This document shows positions 5,185 to 36,672 of a stretch of DNA of 64,000 bases, piece after piece. Made by a program: the position numbers and the translations under genes. Positions within the stretch are counted from its first letter, which is position 1, and each line of letters opens with the position of its first letter. Under the pieces are notes generated by a model. It saw only the letters and a list, made by a program, of their open reading frames with translations, was not told the DNA's origin and ran no database searches. The stretch is from Cyanidioschyzon merolae (lineage: Eukaryota). The stretch lies in NCBI GenBank assembly GCA_000091205.1, contig AP006492.2; one strand, given 5' to 3'.

Positions 5185-7326
5185 TTAAGGCACCGGATGC
5201 GATTCTGGTGCTGGATTGCTTGTCTGCTCACCACGTCTGCGATACGTAAGTTCGAGGTCTTTCGGACTTTTCCAGATGAGCCAGCGCACGGTGCCCAGGT
5301 TCATATTGGGATCCAAAACGTGGCCTCGGCAGAGTATTTCGATCTCCTGCGGGGGCGGGACTATCGGCTCGGACGAGAGGGCATCTGTGGCGGCCCGGCT
5401 GGCGCCCAGGGCCCCTCGGTGACCACCAGGCGAGGCCCGTTGATTCGCAGACGTTGTCTGTTCGGAGAGCTTCGCGGAAACGTACGCCATGGCTTTGCGG
5501 ATTCGCAATATTCGAGGTGCAGTCAGTTTGCTCTGGCGAAGGCTCTGTAATGTGCTCCCAATGGCGGGTTCCAGACCGAACGATATCTTGACTTGCTCTT
5601 TGGCAAGCGTGCGATTTCGTCCGACAATGTCGATGACCCATGAAGGCATGAGCCGCTCTTCAATTTCGGATCCATCAAAGCGATGCGCAAGCTTATGAAT
5701 CAGAGGTTCGATGTGGCCCTGCTCGTTGACCACCACCGGAATGTCGCCGGGGAAAACAAATGGTGTAAGTACCGCAGCTTTCTTCTCCGCCGTCGTTGAT
5801 CCTGTATCACTGGATTGGCCCGAACCTGTATTCAAGGTTTCCGCTACATGAGGGTTGCGCTTTAACCACTGCTTTCGCCACCAGTGAAAGAGCCCTCGGA
5901 GCGTGTGCTCGCCAATATTGACTTTTTGGTCTTCGGATTCGGCCTCCAGACCAATATCCACTGCGTAGACATCTGCGTCGCTCACAGTGCTTTTGCGCAA
6001 ACGGATACCGAGGCTACCCATACGAGTGTCCACGTTGAACCAGGACGGCACGTAAACGAGCTCATCGATCTCTGCGATGACATCATCAAGGCTTCGATCG
6101 CGACCGAAACTTCGAATGTTCAGCGCTCGACATACATCCCACAAGTGAATGCCATGTTCGCTATCTCGGACCAAAACGTGACGTCGATTGTTCAAGACTC
6201 GATAGTCGACTACGGATGGGAGCCCTTCAATGACGCATTCATGAGTCGGATCTGGATGTTTCATGGAAACGCATCGGAGTTGAGATTCACCAAATCCGAT
6301 CCATAAATTGGAGGAATAGTTGGCTGTCGGTGCAATGCAAACATCTAAAACAGCCTTAGACCAGTCACATACCTGCTCTCTGCGCGCCGAGTGCCCGTCG
6401 GGCTCGAACAGCCTTCGTGTCTCTTTCGAATTCCGGAGATCGGTGCGGCAGACAGTCCCGTCACGTGAACCGGACACGAACCACGAAAAAGACGGTGGTA
6501 CATCAAGCGACCACACAGAGTCTTCATGAACGTGGTGGAAGACACTGAGGCAACGCTGTTGCCGAATATCCCAGAGCCGAACCGCCCCGTCGCTGCCGCC
6601 ACTAAGACACAAAAGTCCGTTCGAAGATAGTCGAATGCGACGAACGATATCAGCATGTCCATGCAGCCTCATGACATCTCGACTCGTTCGCAAGTCGTAC
6701 AGCCGAATAGATCGATCTGAGTGCCCTGCGGCGACAACAAAACAGTCTGCCGAGCCGTTCAGTGCACCATCCCGATGAAGCGCTGAAGCAATGCAATAGA
6801 TCGACTCATTTTCATCGCCTCTCATTTCAGAAAAGGCCACCATACGATCTAGATCCCACAGAATGATACGATTGTCGTATGCGGTGCTCACGAACTGTCG
6901 GCTACTGACGTTCGCGAGAGCTCGCACATAGTCCTGGTGTTCAACGAGCGTCGCAAGGCACGCTCCGGCCGATAGGTCCCAAACTTTCACGGTCGCATCA
7001 GAGGAGCACGAAACCAGCGTAGGATAGCCTCCTGGGGACACAACGTCGTTCACCCAGTCGGTATGCTCTTCCAGAGAGCGCAAATGTGCCTGCTTAGCGA
7101 TCCGCCCCTGTTGCGCTCTATGGTCGATGGACCACAGCCGCACTGACCCATCCCGACCGGCTGAAACGAGAAGGTAGGCGTCCGACTGAGATTCGGGCTT
7201 CTGTAAGGCCAGCACAGCGTTAATGCCGTAGCGATGCTGTTGCTCTGGAAAGCGACACCAGTACGTAACCGTCCGCTGCTCAGACCTGGCGTTCCGCGGG
7301 AACGACAAACTTTGCGCGTCCGTCAT
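5185..7326 (-). CDS. WDR48: WD40-repeat protein, WDR48/UAF1-like (deubiquitinase-activating factor)
   Basis: ATG at 7326 (minus) confirmed. The N-terminal half has at least 7 WD40 repeats (LVSAGRDGSVRLW, LVSCSSDATVKVWD, TAYDNRIILWD, AAGHSDRSIRLYD, LSGGSDGAVRLWD, VSGSRDGTVCRTD) and a WDR48-like N-terminus (VTYW...GINAVLAL). The C-terminal ~300 aa resemble the WDR48 ancillary/SLD region. Confidence 0.75.
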   Translation of the reverse strand: MTDAQSLSFPRNARSEQRTVTYWCRFPEQQHRYGINAVLALQKPESQSDAYLLVSAGRDGSVRLWSIDHRAQQGRIAKQAHLRSLEEHTDWVNDVVSPGGYPTLVSCSSDATVKVWDLSAGACLATLVEHQDYVRALANVSSRQFVSTAYDNRIILWDLDRMVAFSEMRGDENESIYCIASALHRDGALNGSADCFVVAAGHSDRSIRLYDLRTSRDVMRLHGHADIVRRIRLSSNGLLCLSGGSDGAVRLWDIRQQRCLSVFHHVHEDSVWSLDVPPSFSWFVSGSRDGTVCRTDLRNSKETRRLFEPDGHSARREQVCDWSKAVLDVCIAPTANYSSNLWIGFGESQLRCVSMKHPDPTHECVIEGLPSVVDYRVLNNRRHVLVRDSEHGIHLWDVCRALNIRSFGRDRSLDDVIAEIDELVYVPSWFNVDTRMGSLGIRLRKSTVSDADVYAVDIGLEAESEDQKVNIGEHTLRGLFHWWRKQWLKRNPHVAETLNTGSGQSSDTGSTTAEKKAAVLTPFVFPGDIPVVVNEQGHIEPLIHKLAHRFDGSEIEERLMPSWVIDIVGRNRTLAKEQVKISFGLEPAIGSTLQSLRQSKLTAPRILRIRKAMAYVSAKLSEQTTSANQRASPGGHRGALGASRAATDALSSEPIVPPPQEIEILCRGHVLDPNMNLGTVRWLIWKSPKDLELTYRRRGEQTSNPAPESHPVP

Positions 7327-7643
7327 GCGCTGTGTGGCTTCGTAGAAAGCACAGTCCGCTGCACGACGCCTTCAAACACCAGGCTCCTAAGAAACCTTGT
7401 GCATTCCTCAGTGCGATGCAACAACGCACCGTAGCCCTTAGACGCTACGGATTGTAACGAAAAAGGCGGTTAAGCGCGACATCTGCGTGCGAATTGGCCG
7501 TCACAGCCTTGGAAACGTCCACGGGCTTGAAGCGTTCGCAGAGCGCGAACAATTCTCCTGCAATCGCCATGGGTAATGTTTTACTTTAGTTCAGGTTCCC
7601 AGAATCATTTGAATGCTTAGGTTTGGTGCTTCCGTGGAGAGTT

Positions 7644-7668
7644 CCCTGTCTCCAGGATATAATGCATC
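7644..7668 (+). promoter_or_regulatory. TATA-like element copy 1 (TTCCCTGTCTCCAGGATATAATGCATCG)
   Basis: One of two ~24-bp imperfect direct repeats sharing a GGATATAATG core, in the 1.3-kb divergent intergenic region between WDR48 (minus, start 7326) and prohibitin (plus, start 8650). A regulatory role is a hypothesis. Confidence 0.2.
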
Positions 7669-8002
7669 GGTGAGATCCGAGCGATCTGCTTCTCGGATAC
7701 TGCACACCACAGGTCACGCGCATGGGTCGTGTCCTATTATCGTCACTATCTCTGATTTGATACGTTTTTCGTTTGGTTATTCTACGATGGGCGCTCAATG
7801 GCTTCGTTCGTAGGATACGTTTTCGCCCAACCAGAGGCGTCTATACGGCTGCAAAGCTGTTTGCGTCCGCGTTCAGGCACGGGTGTCGCATGGAAAGGCC
7901 TTTCGGGCATCGACTCGACATCCGCACTGGGCGCTTGATTCCATAGAGCGATGTATCGCTCCGGATGCGAAACAGGGCAGGATACTTTTTACATCGCCGG
8001 TT

Positions 8003-8025
8003 TTCCCTCTGGATATAATGTTCAT
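8003..8025 (+). promoter_or_regulatory. TATA-like element copy 2 (TTCCCTCTGGATATAATGTTCATG)
   Basis: Second copy of the GGATATAATG-containing motif, ~357 bp downstream of copy 1 in the same orientation. Confidence 0.2.
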
Positions 8026-8649
8026 GCTGCATGGAATATAGCGATGACCACAGTGCTACCCAGAGGCTTTACGTAGGAATACTCCATTTGAATGATGTCC
8101 ATCCTTGGCCCCTGCTGAAGAAGAAGACGCCTCTGTCAAGGCCAGTCGGACCATTGCAACAATCCGCGCCCGGTAATCATAGACTAGTGGTGTTGGAGAT
8201 CCGCATGCCATGGCGCTCCAGGTCGGCGCCAAGCTCACGTCTGATGGGGTGCTTGAAACCTTGGGATCCTTCGAAAGGAGCACAACGACACCGACGCTTC
8301 ATGAAAGATAATGGGTATGAACTAGTCGGCATCGCTCGCAGAGCCCCGAATATGTCGATGCAGAGAAGTCCCGCGCATCATACGTTGTCTGCACGGCGAG
8401 CTAGGTTCCGAGCGCCGCCCGTGCGAATCGGCACGCTGCAACGACTCGAACTGTGAAAATGGAACATTTAGGAACAATAAGTATTTATTTGATATGGATT
8501 TGGTATTTGTGGACGTATGACGGCCGGCGCCCGTCTCGAAAGCGCTGATGGCGATGGAATCGTACGCCGTTCGTACCCCTAGCAGACTTTCGAAAGTTTC
8601 GCGTACCCGGCAGTCTTCGGAGACGCGGCGCTGACGCTCAGGATCGGGT

Positions 8650-9504
8650 ATGGGCGCTTCAGGTAGAGAGGCAGCGGCCAAGCTGGCAAAGACGCTGAAC
8701 ACGGCAGCCAAGTACTCCATTGCGCTGGGCGTACTGGGAAGCCTCCTGCAGACGTCGCTGTATACTGTGGAAGGCGGTCATCGCGCCGTTATCTTCAACC
8801 GCTTTACCGGAGTTGAACAGCGTGTCGTTGGTGAAGGCACACATCTGCGCATTCCCTGGGTTCAGAAACCCATTATCTATGACGTGCGCACACGTCCGCG
8901 CACGATCACTTCCGTAACAGGTACGAAAGATCTTCAGATGGTGAACCTAACGCTCCGAGTTCTCAGCAAGCCAGATAAACAGCAGCTTCCACGGATATAC
9001 TCGAGGCTAGGTGTGGACTATGATGAGCGGGTGCTGCCCTCCATTGGCAACGAGGTTCTCAAGGCGATCGTTGCACAGTACAACGCCGAGCAGTTGCTGA
9101 CGCAGCGGGAGAAAGTTAGTCGTCAGATTCGCGAGACACTCACGGCACGAGCGAAATCCTTTGACATTGAGCTCGACGACGTATCTATGACACATCTGAC
9201 GTTTGGACGCGAGTTTGCGCAGGCAATTGAGCAAAAACAGGTTGCACAGCAGGAAGCTGAACGCAGTCGATACATCGTCGCCATCGCTGAACAAGAGCGG
9301 CAAGCTGCCATCACTCGTGCCGAGGGCGAGTCCGAGGCCGCGGCCCTTGTTAGTCAAGCGCTACAAGAGAGTGGTGCCGGTTTTATTCAGCTGAGACGCA
9401 TTGAAGCTGCACGGGAAATCGCGGAAACACTTTCAAAGGCACCAAACGTCGTGTACTTACCGGCGACACATGGAACAAATATCCTTCTGAACCCAGGAAT
9501 ATAA
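8650..9504 (+). CDS. PHB: Prohibitin (SPFH/band-7 family, mitochondrial inner membrane scaffold)
   Basis: ATG at 8650 confirmed. The 284-aa protein is colinear with prohibitins: an N-terminal hydrophobic anchor ([31 protein letters not shown]), an SPFH core ([24 protein letters not shown]...[26 protein letters not shown]) and a coiled-coil ([31 protein letters not shown]). Confidence 0.9.
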
Positions 9505-9992
9505 CGAAGCAAGTTCAACACAAGCTTTTTTGTGGACAAGTTGCATCGGCCTGGGCAATAGATAAATTCACACTCAAGTGAATTCGTCCGCTTTGAGTGT
9601 ACATGCATCCTGTTCTAGAAGCTGAAACCGAGCCAAAAGAACACAAATGTTATCGTTGCTGGCCAGTTCCTTGTTGGCTACCATGAAATCCTCGCATTGG
9701 TTGCACCGGCTATCAGTTGATGCCGAACGAATTGAAACTGGATGCAGTCTTTTCGCTGCCGAGAAGACAGACGCGTCAAGCACACATACGCACCAGTGCT
9801 GCGAGCCCAATGCGCGTAGCGAGGTTGTGAAGATGCCTCGGGAGAAACACGATGCTGCCCTGCCTGTACTGGGCGATATGCAGATTCGCGAAATTTGCTT
9901 TGAAAGATACGCACACATCATGTATTCCTCATATCGAGCAAGCAGCATGATGCTTACAGAGAAACCGAAAATACCCCGTTTTCCAGTTAAAG

Positions 9993-11123
9993 TTAGTCGT
10001 AAAAAATAACGCTGTGCCTTGAATCATCCCTGCCGAATACATTGGGGGAATGGGCGCGCCGAAGCGAGCACAGTTCTCCCAGAGCTGAATCGTTCAACAG
10101 CTGGGGTGCCTGGGAGAACTCCGACAACGATGTCGCCGCTGTGGTGCTGGGCGACGCTGCCAACCGAATCGGATTCACAATGCGCATGAGACTCCTCGCA
10201 ATTTGAAAAGTTTGAGCGTTCTCGTGAAAATAATGGAAAGCTGTCTGGCCGAAACAGCACAAAGCGATGCCTATGGCATGGCCTCCCACGCCGCACGCGA
10301 TCGACCTCGTGAAGGCCGTACCCTGCATGTGTTCGACAGTGTGCAGCGCAGCCTGCTCAAGAGAAAAAATGGACAAATCTACTTGGCATCGAAGGCCCTT
10401 TGGTGTCACACGTGAGGCACCACAAGTATCAGCGAAAATGATTCGTGACCCGTGGGCGAAAACCATGCTCCAGACAAAGTGCGATGTGGACGGTGCTGGT
10501 TGACCATTGGCCAGCTCGCCCCGGTGAAATTCATGCCACAGAACACTGGGCAGTTGATCAGCGTCTACCTGCTCCGCTGTGTAGAGCGTACGAATTAACT
10601 CTACGTCGTTCTCATCAAAACGATATTCTGTTGCATGTAAACAGACAGCCGCTGGGCTGGTCGCAAGCTTTCTCCTGATATCCTGCGCAGCGAGAAGCAT
10701 CACGCGCCGCAGCGTGGTGGACTTCCCCGTCATATGGCCGCCATACGTAAAGATGCAAACGTCCGCAACTCCGGCTATTGCGGCCGAAATGGCATCCTGG
10801 ATAGACCATACAGGCTGGGACGTTGGTACCGATGCGTCCTGCTCACGCAAGTTTTGACTCCGGAAAGCTGCATCGAAGTAGAGCTGACTCGGGCTATCGT
10901 TGCTCCCGAACACAAACGCACCATCAAACGCGAGCCGCTGGCAAGATAACCGGTCAAGTATAACGCTCGAGTCGCCGTAGCACGTATACACAGACTCGTC
11001 GCGCGCAGTGAACAGCGTACTCTGCGAGAAACGTTCAGAATCCACGAGCGGTCGTCCACAAAGTGCAACACCTATTGGCAGCGCAGTGTGAAGCCAGCGG
11101 AACCTATCATCACTTTTATTCAT
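9993..11123 (-). CDS. Divergent kinesin-motor-like protein with a non-canonical P-loop
   Basis: The ORF top (11180) is a TTG; the first ATG is at 11123 (minus). The motor-domain order is recognisable: RLAFDGAFVFG...(N1-proximal), ADVCIFTYGGHMTGKSTTL in place of IFAYGQTGSGKTYTM, SHFVWSMVF in place of SSRSHxIF, and RIIFADTCGASR in place of LVDLAGSE. The P-loop and switch II are degenerate and there is no long coiled-coil tail. Confidence 0.45.
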   Translation of the reverse strand: MNKSDDRFRWLHTALPIGVALCGRPLVDSERFSQSTLFTARDESVYTCYGDSSVILDRLSCQRLAFDGAFVFGSNDSPSQLYFDAAFRSQNLREQDASVPTSQPVWSIQDAISAAIAGVADVCIFTYGGHMTGKSTTLRRVMLLAAQDIRRKLATSPAAVCLHATEYRFDENDVELIRTLYTAEQVDADQLPSVLWHEFHRGELANGQPAPSTSHFVWSMVFAHGSRIIFADTCGASRVTPKGLRCQVDLSIFSLEQAALHTVEHMQGTAFTRSIACGVGGHAIGIALCCFGQTAFHYFHENAQTFQIARSLMRIVNPIRLAASPSTTAATSLSEFSQAPQLLNDSALGELCSLRRAHSPNVFGRDDSRHSVIFYD

Positions 11124-11639
11124 CAAAATTTTTGGTTTTTTTTCAGGAGCGAAAATAACCCTAGACTTCCGGCTATTCAAAACGGCGACTAGAACACACG
11201 CTGCGGTTCGATGTTGAACGCGGGCTTTCCAGCTGTCGAGCCGCGACAGCCACCAGAGCGTTCCGAGTGCTCCTAGTACCGCCCAGGGAAGAGAATGATG
11301 AAAGCAGGATCACGCCCTAGAGGTCAAGAAAAGAGAGGCACAGGTGAGCTTTCCGAAAAACGTCGAGTGGAGGCGGTATCTAATGGAAACAGCGTGCAGA
11401 CGCTATTGATGCGTCGGAACGACGCAACGTAAGGATGCTTCGCGATCCGCGAACGCCACGATGAACAGATAGGATCGATGAAAACCTTTACAGTGTACTG
11501 TTCTAACTCAGAAACAGAGGAAATGGCTACGCCTGTCCCATTCTACGTACTTGGATGTATATTGAACAACGCCTCTGCTCGGCTGAGCGGTGGTCAATGG
11601 GTCGTTCATCTGGTTACCGATGTGCCCCGGGGAAAGCGT

Positions 11640-13292
11640 TCATGCGCTTTCGCTGCCGTTAGGTCGAGCGAGGCTCTCTGGAAGCCGGAACTCGACACAG
11701 TACATATACTTCTCCGGCGCGACGTGTCGTACGCAGCGAACTCGCAGTTGATCGCGGTCTGGGTCCAACTGGAACGAGTCCACCCGAGGTCGCTTCGAAT
11801 GCCGATCGATTGGAGCAGCGTCGGTGCCTGCATGCCTTGTGGGATTGACCTCCTCTGCGGCTTTCCCGCTATTGCGCTGCAACGCTGCGTCGAAAACCTC
11901 ATTCATCTGGTCGACGATCCATTCGTACGCGTTCTCGCCGTGCGCGAAGCAATAGCAGTAGATATACGGAAGCGGATTTGCTGGTGCAATACTACCTACC
12001 AGCGCATCTAGAAAATGGATTGCTTCAGCCGGCAGATTCATGATAATATGCTGAATCGGCAAACGATCTGAATGAAGGAGCTTCTTCAAAAAGGCGCGGG
12101 CGTCCATGCAGCACGTCGTACAGCGCCCTGGAGGAATCCGGTTTTCGCGAATATTTCGGTCCAGATATTCTACAGCGTCGGGATTGATATCGTTGGCGTA
12201 GACAATGAATCCATGCTTTGCCAGGGGGACGGCGAAAGGTCCTATTCCCGCGAAAGCATCCGCCACAAGCACCGGCTTTTGGCCGGAGGAAAGCCTCATG
12301 GAAGCAGCCGTATGTGGCACGGCATTCGGTCCAGCGGCCACGGGTGGCGTCACCAGCGGTAGCTTTGACGAATCTCGCAGAGGCTCGCTTCCATCCGCGA
12401 ATATCATTTGTTTCCTTTCGTCGATACGTGAGACATCGCGAGGATCAGCATCAAGTCCAGTCTGCGTTGATCCGTGGAGCGTTCGAATTGCATCGATGAC
12501 TCGCCGATGCTCAGTCTCTAGACGCGAATTCCAGTACACTCTGCTCATATCGACGTGAAACACACATCCATTCTCGCGCACGCATGTCTCTAGCGAGCAA
12601 CCAGGTACTGCTGCGAGGACTTCCATTTCGAACGTGCGGAATACGCCACCGACATTCGCTGCCTTGTTCACGACAACCCGGATGCCAGGTATCTTCTCTC
12701 GGAGTACTTGGCCAATGAGATACTTATATGGATGGTGTACGTCCCGTAGGTTCAGGTGGAGCACATGACCAGTTGCCTCAAAGGCTTTTGGAACCGGTAT
12801 ACTGGCCGGTAGAAGCTGTCGAAGGACATCATCATGTCCGAAATCGTCATAATCGAGCTTCAGTGGGTAAGTTGTAAACATGGATTCCTTCCATTCTCGG
12901 GTCACTGCACCGTTTGCCTCTGAAGACCGGGTCCCGGAACGCTCTTCGTTGAGCATGTGCACGAGCGCGGCCACATCTCGCGACTGAAAGTCAGTCGAAA
13001 AATTGGACTCTTGTGGTAAAAACTGTTCTCGAGGTTGCTGTCCCGCCAGGTATCGGAGCAGAATGATGCGCACCTGGTCGCTAGCTGTGTGGTTTGGTGA
13101 CGGCGCCACAACGCTCCGCTTCCGGGCGAGTCGCAACACATGCCGCGGGGATAACATACGACGGGCCGTTGCAACCTCCGCCAGTGGAACCCGTACTGCA
13201 TAGACGACCCATTCCTGCTGAAAACGAGTCTTGAGTTCTGCCGGGACCCCAGCACATATCTCGTTGTGGGTTGCCTCGCTGTGCGTAGCCAT
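11640..13292 (-). CDS. TRM5: tRNA (guanine37-N1)-methyltransferase TRM5 (class I SAM MTase, Trm5/TYW2 family)
   Basis: The ORF top at 13592 is a TTG; the first ATG is at 13292 (minus). Trm5 motifs are present: HVLHLNLRDVHHPYKYLIGQVLREK, VVNK...FRTFEMEVLAG, the SAM-binding VLVADAFAGIGPFAVPLAKHGFIVYANDINPDAVEYLDRNIRENR, and the NLP(A) catalytic motif HIIMNLPAEAIHFLD. Confidence 0.8.
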   Translation of the reverse strand: MATHSEATHNEICAGVPAELKTRFQQEWVVYAVRVPLAEVATARRMLSPRHVLRLARKRSVVAPSPNHTASDQVRIILLRYLAGQQPREQFLPQESNFSTDFQSRDVAALVHMLNEERSGTRSSEANGAVTREWKESMFTTYPLKLDYDDFGHDDVLRQLLPASIPVPKAFEATGHVLHLNLRDVHHPYKYLIGQVLREKIPGIRVVVNKAANVGGVFRTFEMEVLAAVPGCSLETCVRENGCVFHVDMSRVYWNSRLETEHRRVIDAIRTLHGSTQTGLDADPRDVSRIDERKQMIFADGSEPLRDSSKLPLVTPPVAAGPNAVPHTAASMRLSSGQKPVLVADAFAGIGPFAVPLAKHGFIVYANDINPDAVEYLDRNIRENRIPPGRCTTCCMDARAFLKKLLHSDRLPIQHIIMNLPAEAIHFLDALVGSIAPANPLPYIYCYCFAHGENAYEWIVDQMNEVFDAALQRNSGKAAEEVNPTRHAGTDAAPIDRHSKRPRVDSFQLDPDRDQLRVRCVRHVAPEKYMYCVEFRLPESLARPNGSESA

Positions 13293-14225
13293 AAGCGTGG
13301 CCGATGTGCCTCGCCGGATACGCCCGAAATCGATGCCAGCCGAGTCCGAGCTCCTCCTCAAGACGGACACCTTCGACACAGCAAAGCGACCAACAAACGC
13401 AGAGCACTGGATTTCAAAGCGTCCTAACGATTCTCCAGGTTGCTCGCTGAACTTGCAGCGCTGCAGTCGGAAATTAGGCAGCGATTCACCTGCCGCGCTC
13501 AATCGGTTGCTTCTCGCTTCGCGCCAGCTGAAAAACGCCCGTCGACCACAGGCACGAACATGACCTCCAGCGAGTCCCCAGCAAAAGCTCAATAGCTGCC
13601 TTAGGGCCTTCAGTTTGCCTTGCGTGCACGCCCTGGTCCCTTGTACTCACCTTGCAAGATCGTTGCGCGTCGCTCAGTGCGGAGCTTTTCCAGAAGCCCA
13701 GCAACTGCGTTTGCTGTCCCAAGACGTATCTAGAGTTATGGTGCTCGAGCAGTTGCTGCACCAAGACAAACAGCCTGAGAGAAAGAAGAAAAAGCGAGCT
13801 CACCCACGATGCTCCAAGTTAACGCCACCGCGAGTCTATAAACGAAAGCAAGAGAAACTGCACCCACGCACAAGCACACACACGTCTCAAGCAACCGTTA
13901 CCCCGGAGGCACAAAGGAACAGCAACAGGATCTGGATACGTATGTACAAGCTCCCAGCAATTGTTACCCCAGTGAAATAGGAAGAGAAACAAGTTCTCCC
14001 CGCTGCTCCTCGACGATCAAGCTACTGATATGAGAAGACGCAAGGCGTCACCGATCGACAGATGGGCACGCATGCCACACCCGCATGCATTCGGCGGTGT
14101 CGTCGCAGCGGCGGCGAAACGGCCGTCGACGGGCGCTTCTGACTTTCGCGGACACTGGAACACTACTGCACTGAAACGTTGAGCGAAAGGTTCGTTTGCA
14201 AGCCATCGACTCTTTTCGGTAGTCA

Positions 14226-16456: not shown

Positions 16457-17773
16457 ATGCGATCCTGGCTACCTGAGCGGAGCCTCGGACCGCAGCCCTC
16501 GTGGCGGCTGTGGTACGCAGAAGCGAGCTTGGAAGCGCTAGAAAGGCTCTTTCGCGAGCAACAGCTCCCTGTCTATGTTGGAATTCTGGTCTTGTCTCCA
16601 GTGTCTGAAGAAAACGCTTCATATGATCATTGGACGGAACCGATACGGGCTTGTTTTACGGAGCTCGAAAGCATCCAGTTTGTTACACAAAAGTGTCAGC
16701 TCTCGCCTTTTGAGCTCGTGCAGTGCTTGCTCGGAGCTCGACAAGCCGGTTCAGCCCCGGCAGTTGCGCTGTCCCAAGAGGTGCACACACAATCTCGGAC
16801 AGGGTCCAGCGCTTCTGCCGCGGCTCACGTTGCCCCTGGTGGTCCAGCGTGTACTGCGCTCACCCGGGACCCGCAGCAACTCATGGCTGTCGATGCAAAG
16901 AGACGTTTCATACTGCCGTTAGAGGAAGCGCTATATCGTCGACTGGGCCTGATCGGACGGGGCCACCAGCCTCGTCTGGCTCGTCGACGATACCGCAGAC
17001 CGGTCTACGGCGATGGAGCATTTGTTATTATTGATCTTGCGCTATTGCAAGAAAAGCCAGAAAGCAAGTATCGACAGCAGGTCACGAGAGGCCTTCAGAG
17101 GTTCACGGATCGGCTCGAGTGGCAACTCACATCCATCAGCGGCACTGATGCGCCGCTCTCGCCCGAGCTTGGTGTCGTTGAAGACACAGCGTGCCGTGTT
17201 TACACGGGAACCGCCACGTCGACTTTCCCGTGGTTGTATCGAAACGTACTTCCTCAAGCTTACACGACCGCAGAAGAATTTCATGATCCATTAGAGCGTG
17301 CGGAGAACTTTTCGATGCTCATGGATGCGCTGGGGTTTTTGATGCGAGCACCCCGCGGCAAATGCATCGAAGACGCCTCACAGGAGACTCGATCCTACTT
17401 GCAACCTATGTGGAGCGCTCGGGCTGATGCAGACACCCAGGCTGAGCAGCTTTCGTTTTACCGCTTTGAGTGGGGTGCTACTCAAGCATCTCTCCTGCCA
17501 CACGCATGGTGGAAGAGAATTCTGCCCCTTGTATGGAAGCTGCACAGCACACCGACCGATTCGTCTCTGCAGATCGTGCTGCAGGTCAGGTACCAGGGAC
17601 TAGCTGATGAAGCTACCTCCCGGAAGCATCGATACAACACATTACAACACTCGCCGTACACTAGGAATCTTGTCGGATTTTTCGGTTCTACGTCGGAGCT
17701 GCCGTTCTCGAGCACGCGGGTAAACGGCGCTCACGATCAGATTCCTTTCGTGTCGTTCGAGCAACCGCTTTGA
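16457..17773 (+). CDS. Hypothetical protein (438 aa), no recognisable family
   Basis: ATG at 16457 confirmed. It is a long ATG-initiated ORF in a coding-like context, lying between IGPS and the midasin 3' end, with no motif I can assign. Confidence 0.4.
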   Translation: MRSWLPERSLGPQPSWRLWYAEASLEALERLFREQQLPVYVGILVLSPVSEENASYDHWTEPIRACFTELESIQFVTQKCQLSPFELVQCLLGARQAGSAPAVALSQEVHTQSRTGSSASAAAHVAPGGPACTALTRDPQQLMAVDAKRRFILPLEEALYRRLGLIGRGHQPRLARRRYRRPVYGDGAFVIIDLALLQEKPESKYRQQVTRGLQRFTDRLEWQLTSISGTDAPLSPELGVVEDTACRVYTGTATSTFPWLYRNVLPQAYTTAEEFHDPLERAENFSMLMDALGFLMRAPRGKCIEDASQETRSYLQPMWSARADADTQAEQLSFYRFEWGATQASLLPHAWWKRILPLVWKLHSTPTDSSLQIVLQVRYQGLADEATSRKHRYNTLQHSPYTRNLVGFFGSTSELPFSSTRVNGAHDQIPFVSFEQPL

Positions 17774-18476: not shown

Positions 18477-21400
18477 CTAGCATCCGGAATCCATGCCGGC
18501 TGCGAGCCATTGCCGTAACGTGTCCCCGAATACCGCCGGCAAAGCGGCAATCTCCTCTACAATGACATAGAAAGGAAAGGGAAAATCTTCCAGGTAGCGT
18601 CGCACCTGCATGCGTCCACCCGGGGCAAAACCGACCTGCTTCATATCGAGAACAGAGGTACGCCGGACCGCGCTCGACGCCTGCTGCTCTTGTTCTCGAG
18701 TGCCAGCAACCTGATCCAATATGAAAAACACGATCCGCAGACGTTGTGCATTCGCTTCTCGAATGAGCGCGCGGAGGGCGTCTCGCTCTCCTAGTCGCCC
18801 GTCGGAAAGAATCAGCAACAGCTGCCAAGAATCGATCACACCGGCTTGCTGCTCCCGTGCCTCTCGGAACAACGCCGACGCACATTCTAACAGAGCGACC
18901 ACATTGGTCGCCTGCTGCTGGAACGTAAACTGACCAAGCAGCTGATCACCAACAGAGCCAGCGGCGGGTATTCCGGCGTGTAAGGAATGCACGACTTGTG
19001 CATCGCAACCGAAACGGATAACACCCAGATGTGCCAGTTCGAGTCGCTGCAGCGCCGCTGCAACCACCACCAGAGACTCTAGTGCCAAGCGAGACGCACC
19101 TGATTCGTGCATACTCGCAGAGTCGTCGACCGCAACAACGATATCGTATCGACGACGGTCTGGACGAATACGACGCATCCAGATACGATCGCGGGTGTAG
19201 TTGCTGGCCACATAATCAATGAGACGACGCATATGGAGCCGCTTCCCGGTGCGAAAGTCGCCTGCAAAACGCGTCATTTGGTTGTACTCGAGGACGGGTT
19301 CCAGTCGACGGCTGAGGTGTGCAATCGTCGCCTCATGAGAACGTTCAAGTGCGAACCAGGTGATCAAATCAGCATCAGCAGCCGCTTGTTCCAGCGAGTA
19401 TCGCGTATGGTCCGCGTCCATGTGCTGTGGTGCGATATCCTGGTTGTCATCCTTGTCGTTTTCGTCGTCGCGATGATGCAGGGACTCTTGGCGTTGCGTT
19501 GCGCGCTGGCGTTCAGGTTCTGGTGTCTTCGCGGTAGACGTCTGGCGTCCTGGTGACGCTTCCGCTGGTGACAGTGTCGACGACGCGCTCCACTGTGCAT
19601 TGCGATGGCTTGCAGCTGGTACCACCAGGTCGTCGACATTCGAACCGGTCATCTGCTGCACCTGCGGCTGATGCGGCACGCCCGTTGGATCCTGGTTGTC
19701 GCTCCAGAGATCGTCCGTCAACGCAGGCATACGATGTTGTTCATCTGCCGCAGCTGGTTTGTTCTGTTCCAACGAAGTTGATGTTTCCCCAGTGTACGGG
19801 TATGGCAAGTCAAGGGGTGTTGCGGTTGGCGCGGCTCCACTAGACCATTCTGCTGCTACGCTTGACGCAACATGAGCCTGCCGGTCCGGAGCGAGTGACA
19901 CCGCCGCCTCTGCTGCATACGCGGGTGCGCCTTGCGCCGAGGCGCTCCGCTGCTCTTCGGTGCTTTCCCAGGATGCTGGCTGGGGCGGCGTTGTCCAGTG
20001 CATAGCGTCCTGGCTCCAGATCGTCTCCGGCACATTCCTGGCTGCGAGCGGCATCGTTGTCGCAGCATCGACCTCGGTATGAGCCGCTCCGGGCCTCTCC
20101 CTGGGATTTTCCGATACCGCTTGCATGACCGGTGCCTCTGCGGATGCTGGAAGCGTACCTGACGACGCGGCTGCGGCTCCAGTTGCTGCTGCGGATTGCG
20201 ACGGTGCACTTGCAGCGTTTCCAGACTCGCCTCCGGTAGCCAGTTCGGGGAGCGCAGCATTGGCTAGTATCGAGGATTCAGAGACGGGCGAGCGGCCTGT
20301 GTGCTCTCTCGTCTCCGAGGTATCCCGAGCGTCAGACTGAGACCTCTCGGCATCTGCGGGAGACGCGTTCATCGTATCTCCATTGTCGGACAGAGCGTCC
20401 TCGTCTGAATGCAACGCGCTCCTCGCTTCGGCCTCCTCCGAGGCGTCAACAGAGACAGAGTCGACAGCAGGTTCGTCGCATTCCCAGTCTTCAGCGAATG
20501 GCAAGCCTTCAGATGCCTCTGACACCCTATCCGGAGACGAGTTGCCGTCCGGATGCACCAGGTCCTCGAGGATGTCGGGAGCGTCCTGCTCGGGCTCGTT
20601 CAGCGACGCTTCCGGGCTCATGGAGGGTTGCGCAGGCCCCGTGACTGCACACGGTAACCGCGGGGCAGCTTCTGCATCCACGGTGCTCTCGTTGCCAGAT
20701 GCAACCACCTCCGCTGGTGCATCTGTCATCGAGTCGGGTGCCGCTTCCTCCATACTCGTCGCAGCTAGAGCTGTTGCTGAGGTCGCTGTCCTGTCAGCAG
20801 GCAACGCGCGCTCCTCCGGGCAGGGCGTTGGTGCAGTCTCCGTCGCGGGCGGCGCTTCCGTGCCCCCTGGGTTGTTCATGTCACCGTCGACGTCGATGTC
20901 GTCTTCTGGGGCTTGCCCCAGAGTCTCGTTCTCTGTAAACGGTGCCGAGAACGCCGCTGTGGTGAGCAGCTCCTCATTCGATTCGAGGTCATCAGAGGAG
21001 CGCGGCACGCCCTGCTCCGCTGCACTATTCGTCGCTCTGTCGGAGGCGAAGAGCTCCTCACCAAGCTCGGATGCTGCCAGGTCGGCGGAACAGTCACGAG
21101 CATCCGCATTCAATGCTCCGGTGTCAGCAAAGCCCGCTCCCTGGCGCATCACATCCTTACCAACTGCATCGCGCTGTGCATCCACTGCTGCATTGTGAAG
21201 CAGCATCAGCGAACGATCCGCAAGACACAACAAAACCTGAACGATACGCACAAGCGACCAGTGCAGACGCCGCAACATGGCCAGTTTGCGCTCAAGTGCG
21301 CCATGCTGGTGCTCAGAGACATTCGCAGTGCCGTGCACTTGTCCCAGGCACAATACAAACGCTTCGCTTGACGACGGACGCCAGTGCAGGAGCTCCATCA

Positions 21401-24400
21401 GTGTCCAGTCCGGCGTTGCAGTCGGTGTCGCCGTCTGGCACTCTGGAGACGCTCGAGGGCTCGCTTCGGGGTGGCGTTCAGACGCGGGACCCTCGTTATC
21501 CCGACGAGAGTCTTCGGATACTGGAATTGGACCCGCCTCCATTTGGCCATTACCCCGCAGCGATGCAGGCACTCGTCGCTGGAGTTGGAGTCGGAGCCTT
21601 GCAACTTGCTCCAGAGCACATCGGTACAGTTGCGTACGCAATGCCGTTGCCGCAGCACTTGTCGTGCGAGACGTGCCAGACTGAAACGTACGCAGCAGTT
21701 GCTCGAGGTCGGTTGCGCTGCTTTCGATGCCGTCCCAGTCGTGCTGATGGAGCTGACGCCCAAGTTCCGCCGCCAAGGCCGCAAAGCGAGCCCCCAGTGA
21801 CGCAGCGTCTGGCCAACAGCGACACAGTACGGCCAGTTCCAGCGCAACACGGCGAGTATCCATTGTTGAGACAGACGCTTCATCGATTATCGAATATTCG
21901 GCAGCATGACGCTGCGTCTGTGTATCCAGTTCCGTGACTGGAGCACCACGCCCCGGGACCGCTCCCTTCGACAGCACTCGAGTCGCGTCGTGCGCACAAG
22001 TCCAGCTCGCGACCGCCTCCGAGTTCGAAGGCGACGTTTCCGCCGCTGCCGCTGCTGCTGCTGCGCAACGTACGGATGCTTGCGTCTGGACTTGCACAGC
22101 TGGATGAGCATGCGCGATCTGCCAGGTTTCGCGTTGGTCAGCGAGGTCGCTGAGCAGCCCGCGCACCAACGCCAGCAACGTAGCCACGGTGCGCAAGCCT
22201 CGCAGCTCTGCCGGATCCGTAGTAGCCGTCAGCTGCTCCCAGAACTTGGTATCCACCAGCAGCAACATGTCCAGCACATCGAAAAGAGCTGCATGATCGT
22301 CGTCGCCGTCGTCCGTATTGCTCATGTACGGTGTGTTTGGCTGCTGTTGCTGTTGCTGTGGCTGTTGTTGCGTCCGAAGACGCTCCGCTTGTCCCAGGGG
22401 GTATCCCCAGGGCGCCCGCCCGTAATAGAGCACGCCAGCGGGCCAGTGCAACCGCAAAGGCTCTCGCAATGGACGCTTTCGTATCCTCATTGGACGCAGC
22501 AGTTGAAAGATAGAGCGATAACAACGCTCTATAGATGCCCAACAGCACTTGTTCTGGTGCGCTAGGCGCTCCAGTTCCCTCAGTGCAGCCAACGACGCCT
22601 CGTGTACCAGCGATAACTGCTCCAACGCTGGTCCAGCTGCCTTCACGTTGGTGTCCATGAACGATTCTTGCGTCGAGCTGACCAATGCGGTTTGCGAACG
22701 CTCCAAGAGCTGCTTAGCGACGCGTTCACGAGCTCGCTGCCAGAGCGACTGCACACTGCTGTCCAGCAGGTGGTCCAGGGCTCGCCACTGCTGGCGCTCC
22801 TCCTGCTGCAGCTGCTGGACTGCTGCTCGGTAGCGCTCCCAGTCGGCAAGCTGTCGCCACGGTCGCTGCATCTGCATCCCGAAGCGCAGTCGCTGCAGTT
22901 GCCACTGGGGGAGCTGTTTCTGTTGAAGCTCATCAATCGCTTCCTGCACTATCTCGCAGTATCGTACGTAGTAACGGTAGACAAGTACCAGTTGCGCTTG
23001 GATAGCTTGCAAGCGAGGCTCCAGCTGGCTACCGTAGCGCGCAAGCAACCGCCACAGCTGTAGCAACGGAAAGACATATCCCACGGCGAGCGTCTCCATG
23101 CCCTGTCCACAACAGACGAGCCACTGGGGCACACGCTCATCGCCGAGGAGCATCTCTGGGTCTTGTCCAGCGCTCGTACGCTTTCCCATTGCATCCATCA
23201 ACGAGCATCCTGCCCTGGACTGTTCAGAGACTGCGGCGCTCTCGGCGAGCGTCGCAACCTGCAACCAACACGGGAGCGTGTCGATGACCCGCTTCGAATA
23301 GCGCAGAGCACGCTCTTCACGTTGCCAACGAGTCTGGGCGAAACAAGCGAGTCGCATCGAGACTAGCAGCGAGCCGAGCTGCTCCCAAGTGTCGCGCAGC
23401 GCACCATTAGTCGAATCATCTGCATCGGAGAAAGCACAACGCTGGGCAATCTCTTGTGCCAGGGGTTCAAGGAGCTCTCCCAGGAGCAGCTCGAGCGCTT
23501 CCCGCTCCCGGCCAAGGGCTCGCAATTGTTCGCTTCGCTTGGAACAACTATCCCAGCGCGTCGCAAGGTGCATCCAGAGGGCTCGGTCCGGCTCTTGACG
23601 CGCCCAGGCACGCAGCTGGTCACCCAGGCTAGAGAGCGCTGCTCCGTAGCGCCACGTAGGTTCGGCTGCGCTTCCATGCAGCGAGGCACTGGACTCTGCA
23701 ACCGGTCTCTGCCACGCAGTCCATAAATAGGGCAGGGAGTGTGGATGCTGGAGGACGCTCCACCAGGTAGTTGCCGGTTGGATACGCAACAACTGTATGG
23801 ATGCCACCACGTAACTCCGCAGAAGCGCTTCATAGCTGTGCTTTTGCAGTGCTGCGAGCACTTGAGCAGGGAGCTCTTGCGTACAACTCAAAGCTTCCAT
23901 TCCGATGAGCAGCAGCGCGAGAGCTACGACCACACCAGAGCACCACTGAGTCGTTTTCGTATCCACAGAGGAAGTACCAGGGGCAGCAGTGTTGACCAAT
24001 TGAGCCAACAGCCCGGGCAGCGATTGCCAACAGGTGCTCCCTGGCGGTACTGCTGGGTGCTCGCTCGAGTTCCAGCGTCGACCGCAGCCACCATCCGTAG
24101 CTATCTGACCAGAAGCAATCGCATTGCGCTCCGAGAGTGCTGCATTCCGTACAAAAGCAGTACTGCATGCTATCTGTCCAGCAGCAAGGACGTCGATCTC
24201 CGAGAGCACTGCATTCGGGACAGAAGCAGCACCAGTGGGTATCGCTAAAGGGACAGGTAGTGCGTCCGCCCTGCGCTCCAAGTCCTTAATCACGCTCACA
24301 TACGAATCCGAAGGCGCTACTGCTGCTGCTGCTCGCTGCGAATCTCGTGTCCCGTGAGTTGCCTCCAGAGACAGCAAACTGTATTGGTGCCAAAGACGCA

Positions 24401-27400
24401 ACGCTTCCCATTGTGGGGTTTCGTCGGGATCCAGGTCCATTCGAGCACATGCAGTGCCGGTTGATGCGGTGCGCTCTGGCGAGCCTTGCCGCAGTGGCTC
24501 TAGTTCGGACTCGAAGAGGCGCCTACAGTGTGCAAGCGCCTCATCGGAAGCTTCCGCGGCTGCAACAGCACCTGCTCGACTCCACGGCATTCCAGCTGCT
24601 GCAGCAAGCGTTCGCCAAGCCTCTTGTGCGGACGTTTCCGGAGCCGCTCCATTGGGAATCGATGCAGACGCCTGGGCGCGTCGTTCATCGAGACCAGGAA
24701 CACCTCCGGCAAGCACCACATCCAACAAGACTGCCCAGGCATGCCAGAAACGGGTTTGTGCGCTTTCCTGTCTACAAAGCAGTTGCTGCAACGAAACTAG
24801 CAGCCGTCGAGGTGCTCGAGCAAGGCGCACTGGTGCCAACAGGCCGCCTCTCGCTCCAAGTGATGGCTCAGGCTCGCGCTCAGACGCAAACACCGACTCG
24901 AGAAGCAACAACATCCGCGGCCTCCAGAGCGTCGACCAGTCCAGTGCGTCGGTGGTGCACATCCCAGCGACACTCTTTTCGGCATCGAGAAGCAGCCTCT
25001 CATGGTATTCCTGGTACCAGTCAAGCACGACAAGTCCGGCGGTATCATGCAGGGCGTGAAAACGTCCACCTGGCAGCAGTGCTTCCGCTGCTTGCAGTCC
25101 CTCCAAAGCCCCCAGGCGTTCCGCTGCACTCCAGACGTGTGTCCAGCCTGCAGCGGATTCTCGAGGAAGCATTCGGAGCAGCGGTTCCTGCTGCTCCCTC
25201 CAAGCATGACCGTACGCGAGTGCCGCTTCCAACGTCGGTACCGATGGGCGATAAAACCTACGCGCTCTAGCCTCGGCGCGTAGAGCCGCAAGCTGTGCTT
25301 CCGACAGGTCCACACGACGAAGGAGACTTCGATCTGCGGACCCAGGCAGCGTACAGCTGTAGCCGTTAAAGGCCTGCTCCACAATGCGATCATCACGCTG
25401 ACGCAGGGCCTCCATCCACGGGAGCAGCTCCTCATCCAGATAGCCATATACCTCGGCAGGATCGACCACTGCAGGCAACGACGGCATGCGACTCGCGGAC
25501 TGCTCGGTTTCCGAACGACCGTGCTCTTCGATGCCAAGCACCGGTGCAGCAGTCGGATGTTGAAAGCGACTCGCTGACTGCCCGGTTTCCGAACGACCGT
25601 GCTCTTCGATGCCAAGCACCGGTGCAGCAGTCGGATGTTCAAAGCGACTCGCGGACTGCTCGGTTTCCGAACGATCGTGCTCTTCGATGCAAAGCACCGG
25701 TGCAGCAGTCGGATGTTCAAAGCGAGGAATGCGCCACCAGAGCACCGCATGTCTCTGGGGTACAGTTCCAGGAGCCGTCGTACCTCCAGTGGTCGCAGGC
25801 GCGTTCCGAGAGCGACCTGCGGGCCCCGGTGCGCCCCGTTGAGCGTCCAGCGTCGGCACTAGACCTCGTTCCCAGAGTGCTTCCCAGAGATAGGCATCGA
25901 GCGCGTCGGCGGGCGTGCTAGTGCTGGGCTTGATATGCTGGGCGTCATTATAGGCCCCAAAGTCGTACTGCCGCTGCAACAAGGCATCGGCGAGGCAATG
26001 AAACGCGCATGAACCCGACATGAGTGACTCCCAGTGGTGCGGTAAACCGCAGCAGGTGCGCTGCGGGTCGAAATAACGCTCCTTGGCCTGTTCGCTTGAC
26101 TGCATGGCGTGCAACGTCTCCGAGGCCTCGCTGTCGTCCAGCAGGTGCAGCGCCCAGCACACGAGATGCCAAGACAGCGCTACCTGACGAAGCGCACACC
26201 GCACAAACCAGTCGTTTTCTCGTTCGGGAGCGCCCAGCGCAAGCGCTACCCGCATGGTGGCAACCACGACCACGAGAGGCCATGAAAAGCGCACTAGCCA
26301 GTTGTTCAGCTGCATCCAACGGCGTTGCAAGGCTCCGCGTTCCTGGGTGTTCGCGAAAGCAGCCTCGTGGCTAAGAAGCCTCTCGCTTGCACACAGCAGA
26401 CCCGCTAGATCCATCAGCACAAACCAGGCAAGCCATCGTGGCGTGGAACGCGGAAGCAACGCACTCACTGCGCGCTGTGCGGGTTGCTCAGCAAGCCAAC
26501 GAGTGCGAACGCTAGCATCCGTCGTAAAAGCAGCAACAGCAGCAGCAGCAGCAGCAGCAGCAACAGCATTGGCTGGTGTGCTCTTCTCGACTGCTGCGCT
26601 TTCGCCGGGGTCATCGAGCTCCGCATACGCCCCGTCCTGTTGGACCAAGGTATTCGATGTGAATGATTCACGTGCCGGATCACCGGGGGGCATCGTGAGG
26701 CGACAACATGCCTTGGCGGCGGCAGTCAACCAGTCCACAGAGGCCGCATATGCCGCCTCCCTGCCCTGGTTGTAGAAACGTTGCAAGAGACTGGATGCAT
26801 TCGACGTGTACGCATTCGGCAGGGCGCGTTGCCACCAGCACCAGCGCTCACCGCTCGACGAGCATACCTGGAAGCATGCAGCGTCAAGTTCAAGTGCGCT
26901 GCGTATTCTTTTCCAAGCTGGCTGAAACACAGCAACATACCCACGGGTGCTTGATCCAACTGGATGCATTATTGATGCTCGCCAGCGTGCATCGTTTCCA
27001 CTCTCCTGAAAGCGTTTTCGGGACAGGCTCTCGAGAGCATCCAGTCGAATGGCCGTAATCTGCTTCCTGAACGGGCCCTGTATCGTTGACGTCGACCAGG
27101 GAATCTGCCATGGCCAAAAACAACGCCAGTAAAGGAGCAACCACACGAGCACTTGCTGCTGCTGCATTGCAAAAGTCGATTCTGTGCCTGTATCGGGTAT
27201 GGGATGCAGCTGCAGCGTATCCAGTAGAGGTTCACCGCTCAATGACGCGGATCCGGTACGCCCAGGACTGGACGCTCCATCTCTGGGCAGTCGTGCAACC
27301 GGGGCAAGCGAACGAGATGCTCTGCGAAACGTCTCTGCGGAGAACGGCATCAATGGATACGATTCTGGTCCTAGACCGATGAGCGCGAGACGCAAACCCA

Positions 27401-30400: not shown

Positions 30401-31759
30401 CTGTGGGAGCAGTCCAGCACCAGGAAGGGCGCCCGGTCGACTCGACCGGTTGGCGCTGGTGCTGCAGTACTTGTCGCTCATGTTGCAGTTGCACACCATG
30501 TATCGCAACTGCATGTTCGTCTTGAAAAAGGCTCTGCAACTCGTTCCGAAGCGAGAGTCGAGACACTGGCGACAAACTCCAGGCACTCTCCCAGAAGGCT
30601 TCGAGGGCCTCGTAGAGGGCCGCAACCACAGCACCTCGATGTTGCTGTTGCTGTTGCTGTTGCTGTTGCGCTCGATAGATACGAATACAGGCCACGAGGT
30701 CCCGAATGCTCATAGCAGGCTGCTGGAGCATACGCTGACGCTGGAGAAGCCATTCGAGGGCGCGCTTCCAGAGTTCCAGCACCAGCGGTGGTTCGCTTGC
30801 CAACAGCTCCGCAGCCACCGGGAAGAGATCATCGCAGGAGCCCTCATAGGGTATCCATATCTCGGTAAAGCGATTCCGTATGGCAGCGGAGAGTTCCTTC
30901 TTGCCAAAGTCACCGCTGGGGTTCATACAAGCGAAGACGCCAAAGCCCGGAGCTGCCTGCACCTCTGGAAGGGGTTCACCTCCGTGTTCACTGAGCACCA
31001 GTTTGCCTGCGGGTTCTAGCACACTGTTCAGACGCTCCACCACAGCGTCGTCGATCATGTTGATTTCATCAATCAGGAGGAACGCACCTTGTCTCATCGC
31101 CGAGGTGAGTGCTCCATCTTGCCACTTGAAACGAGGTTTTCTCGTGCTCGTAACCACTTTGGATGCCGTTGTAGCGCAACTCTGCGGCACGGCAGTCGAT
31201 GGAGGATCGTTCAGGGCCTCTGTGCTCACTACGGGAACGTAACGACCTACGAGGTCCGCAGCTTCCGTATGACGATGACCATTCAGGGTATAGAGTGGCC
31301 GATTCAGGGCAGCAGCTAATACGGCACAGACCGTGCTTTTGCCGATACCGGTCTCACCAATTAGAAGTACCGGTTCTTGGTTAAGAATGGCGTGTAAAGC
31401 GAGTCCTAGTACGCGTTGCAGACTCGGAACCATGACGAGTCCCAATGCCTCCACCGCAGTTGCCTCAATGCGTTGCCACAGGAGTGTCCCCAACGGCACC
31501 GAGCCCGATCGATGCAACGCGTTGCCAGTTTGGTGATGTCGCTGCTGTTGCTGCTGCTGCGTCTGATAGACTTGATCTGCGCTTGCTTGGGGCTGCTGTT
31601 GCGGCATTTCTGCCTCATGGTCTTGATCTGCGCCTGTACTGTCGAATAGATTCAACCAGGGACACTGGTCGCGCTCAGGTAGCGAATCCAGCAGTTCCCG
31701 GAGCGTCAACGGTGGAAGCACATCCACCATCGCCATGATGGTATGCTCCCTAGTCACCG

Positions 31760-31801
<42 letters not shown>

Positions 31802-36398: not shown

Positions 36399-36672
36399 GG
36401 ATACCTGGAGCTCTCGAGTCACCTCAGAGAGAGCGCGCTCAAGTCGGAGGCAGCTACCCAGTGCGTACGAAGGGTTGCGTCGGCGTCCGCGTTGCGCCAC
36501 CGCAGCGTCGTGACGACGACGGCGGCCTAAGGACTACCTCGACCCGCATGCCCAGAGCGAAGAGGTTTACCTGTTGAGTGTTTCCGGGGCTGGAGCAAAC
36601 ACCACAGGTCGATCAACTTTTGGCTTGGTCGCTGTTTAGCTTCGTGCTTGCGTGATTATAAAGGCTTCATCT

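Follow-up and report, generated by a model that had tools for sequence, protein, structure and literature searches.

CMJ079C, a stalkless and putatively hydrolysis-impaired protein of kinesin descent in the Cyanidiophyceae

When a protein follows the kinesin motor in the order of its motifs and departs from it in the wording of most of them, is it a kinesin, and is it still a motor? The question is raised by CMJ079C of Cyanidioschyzon merolae, which lies in the 64,000-nucleotide stretch of contig AP006492.2 analysed here (hereafter the window) and whose complete coding sequence runs from ATG to TAA over 376 codons (9993..11123, minus strand). An exact-sequence lookup places this open reading frame (ORF) on chromosome 10 of C. 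merolae 10D (BAM80216.1, XP_005534823.1, UniProt M1URG8), where it is annotated as a "hypothetical protein", and text searches of the searchable literature found neither a mention of CMJ079C nor a match for a Cyanidioschyzon pseudokinesin. A first-pass annotation had proposed a kinesin-motor-like protein with degenerate nucleotide-binding motifs, possibly a catalytically impaired regulator. CMJ079C is a genuine, expressed protein-coding gene under purifying selection, and its product, which is stalkless and whose derivation from a kinesin motor is well supported, is probably a nucleotide-binding, hydrolysis-impaired pseudo-motor of kinesin fold.

Kinesin ancestry and distribution of the family

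Taken on its own, CMJ079C is missed by ordinary domain scans because it scores below the Pfam threshold: its sole match is to PF00225, over a 62-residue stretch around the P-loop (residues 78-139), at a sub-threshold 12.6 bits and E 0.068, the curated gathering threshold being 29.3 bits. A single-sequence search of PDB sequences returned chance-level matches only, the best of them a norovirus capsid at E 0.46. PF00225 is nonetheless the best Pfam match for all five orthologs (E 8.7e-6 to 0.068), the others scoring 19.5-25.4 bits and none of the five reaching the gathering score. The HMMER search against PF00225 that had been suggested as a check is therefore borderline for the single protein, and it is the family, both in this ranking and in profile-profile comparison, that gives the positive answer.

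A hidden Markov model (HMM) of the family gave 49 matches in the PDB, every one of them a kinesin and the best KIF3C (E 1.1e-4), and on KIF7 it aligns as four collinear pieces, namely beta-1/RxRP, the P-loop, switch I, and alpha-5 to alpha-6. The family was also compared by hhalign, in local mode, with a reference kinesin profile made from six motor domains (KIF5B, Eg5, KIF1A, Ncd, MCAK and CENP-E), which gave a probability of 97.05% and an E value of 7.8e-11 over 266 columns, a result that was reproduced when the comparison was rerun. In this alignment residues 17-319 map onto residues 9-331 of KIF5B, whose numbering is used for the residue map; this is the whole motor domain from beta-1 to alpha-6, and the first-pass claim that the motifs N1-N4 keep kinesin-like order and spacing is borne out by it. 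As in canonical kinesin motors, the elements of CMJ079C follow one another as beta-1 RxRP, FxFD, P-loop, switch I, switch II, LGG(N) and ExxxT...IxN.

The best conserved block is formed by beta-8 and alpha-6 (AIGIALCCFGQTAFHYFHENAQTFQIARSLMRIVN, residues 283-317, 10173..10277; this and all other parts of CMJ079C lie on the minus strand), which was placed by HMMER alignment to KIF3C 332-388 and KIF7 304-359 and by the residue map. It aligns with kinesin ...TxMIaxxSP...ETLSTLrFAxRAKxIxN, and the second of two AlphaFold models predicts a strand at 283-291 and a helix at 296-316. The neck-linker Asn (N327) is retained in Cyanidioschyzon and Cyanidiococcus and is Ala in Cyanidium. A metal site built from a conserved Cys-Cys and a His in beta-8 was considered and rejected, as beta-8 of KIF5B carries the same ICC.

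The structure predictions, another check that had been proposed at the outset, agree with this assignment. The first AlphaFold model, from a four-sequence alignment, had a mean predicted local distance difference test score (pLDDT) of 48.3, and its top 50 Foldseek matches were all kinesins, at template modelling (TM) scores of only ~0.25. The second, from six sequences, reached a pLDDT of 56.5 and a predicted TM score (pTM) of 0.63, and its secondary structure runs in kinesin-like order: beta-1, the P-loop strand, alpha-2, beta-4/5, alpha-3, beta-6/7, alpha-5, beta-8 and alpha-6. In its predicted structure CMJ079C thus has the kinesin motor fold. Descent from a kinesin motor domain, as judged from profiles and models, is well supported, but only at the level of the family. 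As the protein falls short of the PF00225 threshold and departs from three signature motifs out of four, it ought not to be classed among bona fide kinesin motors.

An exhaustive HMM search over 1.84 billion representatives, together with two indexed searches covering 5.8 billion proteins, recovered members of the family from Cyanidioschyzon strains, from two lineages of Cyanidiococcus yangmingshanensis (54% and 51% identity) and, at ~36% identity, from Cyanidium caldarium (CDCA08G2390) and an ENA contig related to it, the second indexed search adding only Cyanidium caldarium. No homologue of CMJ079C was found in these searches outside the three genera, all Cyanidiophyceae, and the family alignment holds five sequences from them. 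The Cyanidium ortholog bears the automatic UniRef name "Kinesin motor domain-containing". Its EukProt model, ctg_324.g210, matches for ~165 residues and then continues as Gly/Ala/Arg-rich sequence, and has the look of a frameshifted model, not of a true isoform.

Nucleotide site, microtubule-binding surface and architecture

The strings on which the first-pass annotation was built are all present, GGHMTGKST at residues 128-136, TSHFVW at 213-218 and DTCGAS at 232-237, and a remnant of RxRP, CGRP, stands at 22-25. The first of these strings had been called degenerate, and here the description has to be revised. The P-loop (N1; FTYGGHMTGKSTTL, residues 125-138, 10710..10751), which was placed by the alignment and the residue map and on which the matches to PF00225 and to the PDB kinesins fall, contains an intact Walker A motif, GxxxxGK[ST], as G128-GHMT-G133-K134-S135, and this is invariant in the five orthologs as FTYGGxxTGK[ST]; the sequence immediately around it, residues 127-138, is YGGHMTGKSTTL. 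What differs from kinesin is the specific signature GQTxxGKT, in which Q86 is replaced by an invariant Gly and T87 by His, Asn or Gln.

Other parts of the nucleotide site are kept to varying degrees. The remnant of N4 (RxRP) with beta-1, IGVALCGRP (residues 17-25, 11049..11075), is located by the hhalign residue map and by an HMMER piece on KIF7 15-39; R24, P25 and the downstream E30 are invariant, and the motif is found as CGRP and QVRP, the first Arg (KIF5B R14) being Cys or Gln. The position of the adenine-stacking H93 is aromatic in four orthologs out of five and Thr in C. merolae itself. In KIF5B numbering the family-invariant positions comprise V11, R16, P17 and E22 (beta-1/N4), F48 and D49, G76, then F82, Y84, G85, G90, K91 and T92 (Ser/Thr) and, further along, H205, D231, T283, G291 and G292 (LGG) and E311 (ExxxT).

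The two switches are where the signatures have been lost. The switch I remnant (N2), PSTSHFVW at residues 211-218 (10470..10493; residue map and alignment), does not conform to NxxSSRSH: N198 is gone and only the His (KIF5B H205) is invariant, whilst across the five orthologs S201 reads P/G/G/R/S, S202 S/N/Q/C/C, R203 T/S/A/S/S and S204 S/S/A/P/P. The Arg that in kinesin pairs with the switch II Glu is consequently present in none of the five. The switch II remnant (N3), FADTCGASR at residues 230-238 (10410..10436; again from residue map and alignment), stands where kinesins have DLAGSE, and the orthologs read DTCGAS, DTQGAS, DAHGAS or DLASSS. Its Asp, D231, is invariant; G234 is G/G/G/S/S, the Ser being that of Cyanidium; and all five have Ser in place of E236, the catalytic or salt-bridge Glu. 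The replacement of SSRSH by TSHFVW and of DLAGSE by DTCGAS had been correctly read, and comparison of the orthologs extends the observation, as both switch motifs are unconserved even within the family.

The surface by which kinesins contact microtubules has been remodelled. The switch II cluster (L11, alpha-4, L12 and alpha-5, up to LGG; residues 239-282, 10278..10409) was assessed from region lengths and charges and from the residue map. From switch II to LGG the span is exactly 52 residues in each of the five orthologs, as against 60-76 in the six reference kinesins, and the cluster contains 3-4 basic residues (K+R) as against 7-14; the isoelectric point of the whole protein is 5.0-6.2 in the family and 6.1-9.2 in the reference kinesins. 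A five-residue deletion in L12 takes out the kinesin-invariant R278 and S280. In alpha-4, K252 is Cys or Leu, N255 is Asp and K256 is Leu, and in alpha-5, K281 is not basic and R284 is kept only in Cyanidioschyzon and Cyanidiococcus, so that the conserved microtubule-binding elements (K252/N255/K256, R278 and K281/R284) are not preserved as a set. Net charge was considered as a decisive argument against tubulin binding and was set aside; the trend is clear, but the corresponding region of KIF5B is itself near neutral.

In its overall architecture the protein is little more than the motor domain, with ~16 residues before beta-1 and, after alpha-6, ~57 residues in CMJ079C and ~25 in the Cyanidium orthologs, which leaves no room for a coiled-coil stalk, as had been noted from the first. 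The C-terminal tail (residues 320-376, 9996..10166; alignment and models) is short and poorly conserved; a single helix of 11 residues is predicted in it (347-357), it ends in a conserved FYD, and the Cyanidium orthologs lack it. An enlargement lies within helix alpha-1, where ~22 residues are inserted between two invariant family-specific motifs, DAAFRS and VWSIQDA; these two, the P-loop and GGxAIGxxLCC are among the invariant blocks of the alignment.

Expression, selection and possible role

The gene is transcribed in C. merolae, at 40-61 transcripts per million (TPM) in nine libraries (PMC13353863, supplementary data) and at 56-70 TPM in an independent data set (PMC12770821), a level similar to that of the canonical kinesin-5 gene CMC157C, which stands at 42-83 TPM in the same tables. 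Two further supplementary data sets have no entry for CMJ079C. The Cyanidiococcus ortholog BHE84507.1 is transcribed at 82 TPM in diploid and 52 TPM in haploid cells and was quantified in both cell types in a data-independent acquisition (DIA) proteome (PMC13353863); a search for protein evidence for CMJ079C in C. merolae itself found none, and the tables of the same study list neither a signal peptide nor a transmembrane segment. Expression, which the first-pass annotation had asked to be checked, is accordingly confirmed at 40-70 TPM in C. merolae and at protein level in Cyanidiococcus.

What such a protein does can be approached from what it keeps. CMJ079C consists almost entirely of a motor domain (residues ~17-319 of 376), has no stalk and would act as a monomer. 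The elements that hold nucleotide are retained, namely the Walker A Lys and Ser/Thr, the Arg-Pro of RxRP, the switch II Asp (Mg-water) and, in most orthologs, an aromatic residue at the H93 position, and judging from these residues the protein has most likely kept its ability to bind ATP or ADP. The residues needed to close the switches on the gamma-phosphate and to activate the lytic water are absent or unconserved (the Ser-Ser-Arg of switch I, the Glu of switch II and, in Cyanidium, its Gly), and the protein would be unable to close its switches and form the salt bridge by which hydrolysis is activated. The microtubule-activated ATPase of kinesin-1 and Kar3 is abolished when the switch I Arg or the switch II Gly or Glu (KIF5B R203, G234 and E236) is mutated. 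Since L12 has lost its invariant Arg and most of the basic residues around it are gone, stepping along microtubules is not a likely mode of action. The switch II surface is invariant in length, conserved in a family-specific manner and acidic (DLxIF[ST]LEQ...), which suggests that it is used for docking. We would envisage CMJ079C as a nucleotide-occupied regulator or adaptor whose remodelled switch II surface docks a partner, either tubulin, bound statically and in a non-canonical manner, or some other protein.

A number of points weigh against this interpretation. The losses of catalysis and of microtubule binding are both deduced from residues alone. Vik1 binds microtubules without the conserved kinesin contact residues, and on this precedent the loss of those residues leaves tubulin binding possible for CMJ079C. 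A P-loop so strongly conserved is also compatible with a retained, non-canonical hydrolysis. AlphaFold confidence is low to moderate and worst in alpha-4/L12 (pLDDT 32-39), the region on which the microtubule-binding argument is based. "Invariant" is weak evidence in an alignment of only five sequences from three genera; for the sequences of the six reference kinesins a full-length PF00225 match (335-399 bits) is the sole validation; and with a dN/dS, the ratio of nonsynonymous to synonymous change, of 0.33 as against 0.065 for the neighbouring prohibitin gene, constraint on the family is relaxed relative to its neighbour.

Comparison with known kinesin-like proteins helps to define what is unusual here. 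CMJ079C shares with canonical motors the fold, the Walker A Lys and Ser/Thr and the switch II Asp, and differs from them in falling below the Pfam cutoff, in having lost the SSR of SSRSH, in having Ser for the Glu of DLAGSE, in the deletion in L12 with R278, in the ~22-residue insertion in alpha-1 and in lacking stalk, tail and cargo domain. The motor-homology domain of yeast Vik1/Cik1 (PDB 2o0a, 4gkq) is a non-catalytic partner of Kar3; Vik1 has no nucleotide-binding P-loop, and a long coiled coil serves for its pairing with Kar3. CMJ079C has in common with it the idea of a dead kinesin fold and differs on both counts, as its Walker A loop is invariant and it has no coiled-coil neck. KIF26A/B (kinesin-11), Costal2/KIF7 and plant KAC1/2 are scaffolds or regulators in which ATPase activity is weakened or absent, and they are large proteins built of several domains, coiled coils and tails among them, whereas CMJ079C is a bare and far more divergent motor domain restricted to the Cyanidiophyceae; KIF7, moreover, retains canonical SSRSH (family HMM alignment) and DLAGSE, which CMJ079C does not. 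Degenerate kinesin-like proteins are thus already known as a phenomenon, as is the automatic kinesin label of the Cyanidium ortholog. What is new is a bare, monomer-sized motor domain that retains its P-loop, lacks its switches and is restricted to the Cyanidiophyceae.

C. merolae also has TOP, a kinesin-like protein whose role lies outside classical transport, in organelle and nuclear division (Yoshida et al. 2013, as cited in PMC6925296 and PMC5398205), and which is described as a C-terminal kinesin-like protein. That CMJ079C might be TOP was considered and rejected on this architecture, and nothing in the analysis links the two.

The strongest alternative to a hydrolysis-impaired pseudo-motor, though still an unlikely one, is that CMJ079C is an active if extremely divergent lineage-specific kinesin motor or microtubule-regulating ATPase, which has found substitute residues and works as a monomer on spindle microtubules. 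It would explain why the P-loop, the Arg-Pro, the switch I His, the I-x-N of alpha-6 and the neck linker and, in Cyanidioschyzon and Cyanidiococcus, the Asp-x-x-Gly of switch II have been retained, and it fits with purifying selection and with expression at the level of a canonical kinesin. The published count for C. merolae is five kinesins, with no dynein and no myosin (PMC1434745), and additional microtubule functions could be needed in such a cell. Against this, the catalytic switch residues are not merely altered but unconserved from one ortholog to the next (S202, R203, G234), with Ser throughout at E236; L12 is deleted together with R278, and Cyanidium no longer has the neck-linker Asn; the surface around switch II is short and acidic; and there is neither a stalk for dimerisation nor a tail for cargo.

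A more specific form of the pseudo-motor proposal is doubtful enough to be called speculative. In the ancestor of Cyanidioschyzon, Cyanidiococcus and Cyanidium a motor domain may have been reduced to a monomeric switch that binds nucleotide, and turned to a new use with some partner other than the microtubule lattice, for example a component of organelle or cell division, the apparatus for which is unusually streamlined in the Cyanidiophyceae that carry the family. Were this so, CMJ079C would be a stand-alone, "G-protein-like" regulator of kinesin fold, a class that to our knowledge has not been described so far. Quite apart from this, the gene stands outside the published count of five kinesins, and a sixth kinesin-derived gene changes the inventory of a minimal cell. 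A bare motor domain with an intact P-loop and no catalytic switch residues offers a compact natural test of what the kinesin fold can do beyond its motor role, and as C. merolae is genetically tractable, tagging and knockout are straightforward.

It would seem improbable that CMJ079C is a decaying relic, a former kinesin gene that drifts towards a pseudogene and is transcribed without selected function. The gene does evolve fast, as the first-pass annotation had suspected alongside its restriction to one lineage, a suspicion that the searches described above uphold: between Cyanidioschyzon and Cyanidiococcus the nonsynonymous divergence (dN) is 0.396, compared with 0.034 for the adjacent prohibitin, a ~12-fold difference which, together with the higher dN/dS, the eroded functional motifs and the detection of homologues in three genera only, is what a relic would lead one to expect. 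Synonymous sites between the genera are, however, saturated (proportion of synonymous differences, pS, 0.72-0.83), and despite this an intact ORF with unchanged domain limits is present in all five genomes or contigs (C. merolae 10D, a JGI metagenome strain, Cyanidiococcus, Cyanidium caldarium and an ENA Cyanidium-like contig). By the Nei-Gojobori method (NG86) the unsaturated Cyanidium pair has a dN/dS of 0.33 and deeper pairs one of 0.26-0.27, well under 1, and the invariant blocks, the conserved synteny and the detection of the Cyanidiococcus ortholog by proteomics also speak against decay. Hardly credible, finally, is the notion of a generic P-loop nucleoside triphosphatase in which a kinesin-like motif order has arisen by coincidence around a Walker A loop, for although the Pfam match of CMJ079C is sub-threshold and confined to the 62 residues around that loop, the orthologs also weakly match NACHT, PIF1 and AAA models there and the single-sequence PDB search gave nothing significant, the beta-8/alpha-6 block aligns to KIF3C and KIF7 with beta-1 and switch I pieces collinear to it, and the hhalign alignment covers 266 columns of the motor domain.

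The locus and its surroundings in the window

An upstream TTG could lengthen CMJ079C to 395 amino acids (to 11180), and at least one JGI gene call of 395 amino acids has the length of this reading. The extension (11124-11180, minus strand) is unsupported by the Cyanidiococcus and Cyanidium orthologs, which in the alignment start at the ATG.

The convergent neighbour of CMJ079C, and the anchor for synteny, is the prohibitin gene CMJ078C (8650..9504, plus strand; Pfam Band_7, E 6e-33). Prohibitin and the CMJ079C-family gene are convergent in every genome compared, that is in the JGI Cyanidioschyzon contig, Cyanidiococcus, Cyanidium caldarium and the ENA Cyanidium-like contig. In the region compared here (5185-11123 of the window) the pair is inverted between Cyanidium and Cyanidioschyzon relative to a WD40/DUF3337 gene, which indicates that the two genes moved as a unit. 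Trm5 and IGPS adjoin the pair only in Cyanidioschyzon and Cyanidiococcus.

The other neighbour is the Trm5 gene CMJ080C (11640-13592, minus strand), and both neighbours are consistent with the identification of the ORF as CMJ079C. Its mechanically derived Trm5/TYW2 ORF is 650 amino acids long from a TTG, orthologous gene calls being 505-550 amino acids, and translation probably begins at an internal ATG; no Pfam match falls within the N-terminal 100-150 residues of the ORF.

A search of the 64-kb window with ARAGORN found no tRNA genes. A 438-amino-acid ORF at 16457-17773 (plus strand) has no Pfam match at E 1e-5 or better. In the corresponding region of Cyanidiococcus the gene beyond IGPS has a weak Ribonuc_P_40 match, and on this ground the ORF may encode a divergent p40 subunit of RNase P/MRP.

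A single uninterrupted ORF of 6007 amino acids at 18477-36500 (minus strand) is identified from its domains as midasin/Rea1, with six AAA_5 and midasin AAA-lid domains in the N-terminal half and a weak VWA match at the C-terminus. It coincides with a rise in GC content to 0.58-0.62, from 0.52-0.55 in the flanks, and the Cyanidium locus has the same neighbour. Further genes of the window, encoding an FrhB-like protein, GARS, a beta-amylase (GH14), an NAD-binding dehydrogenase and a UvrD-type helicase, are broadly syntenic with the Cyanidium contig.

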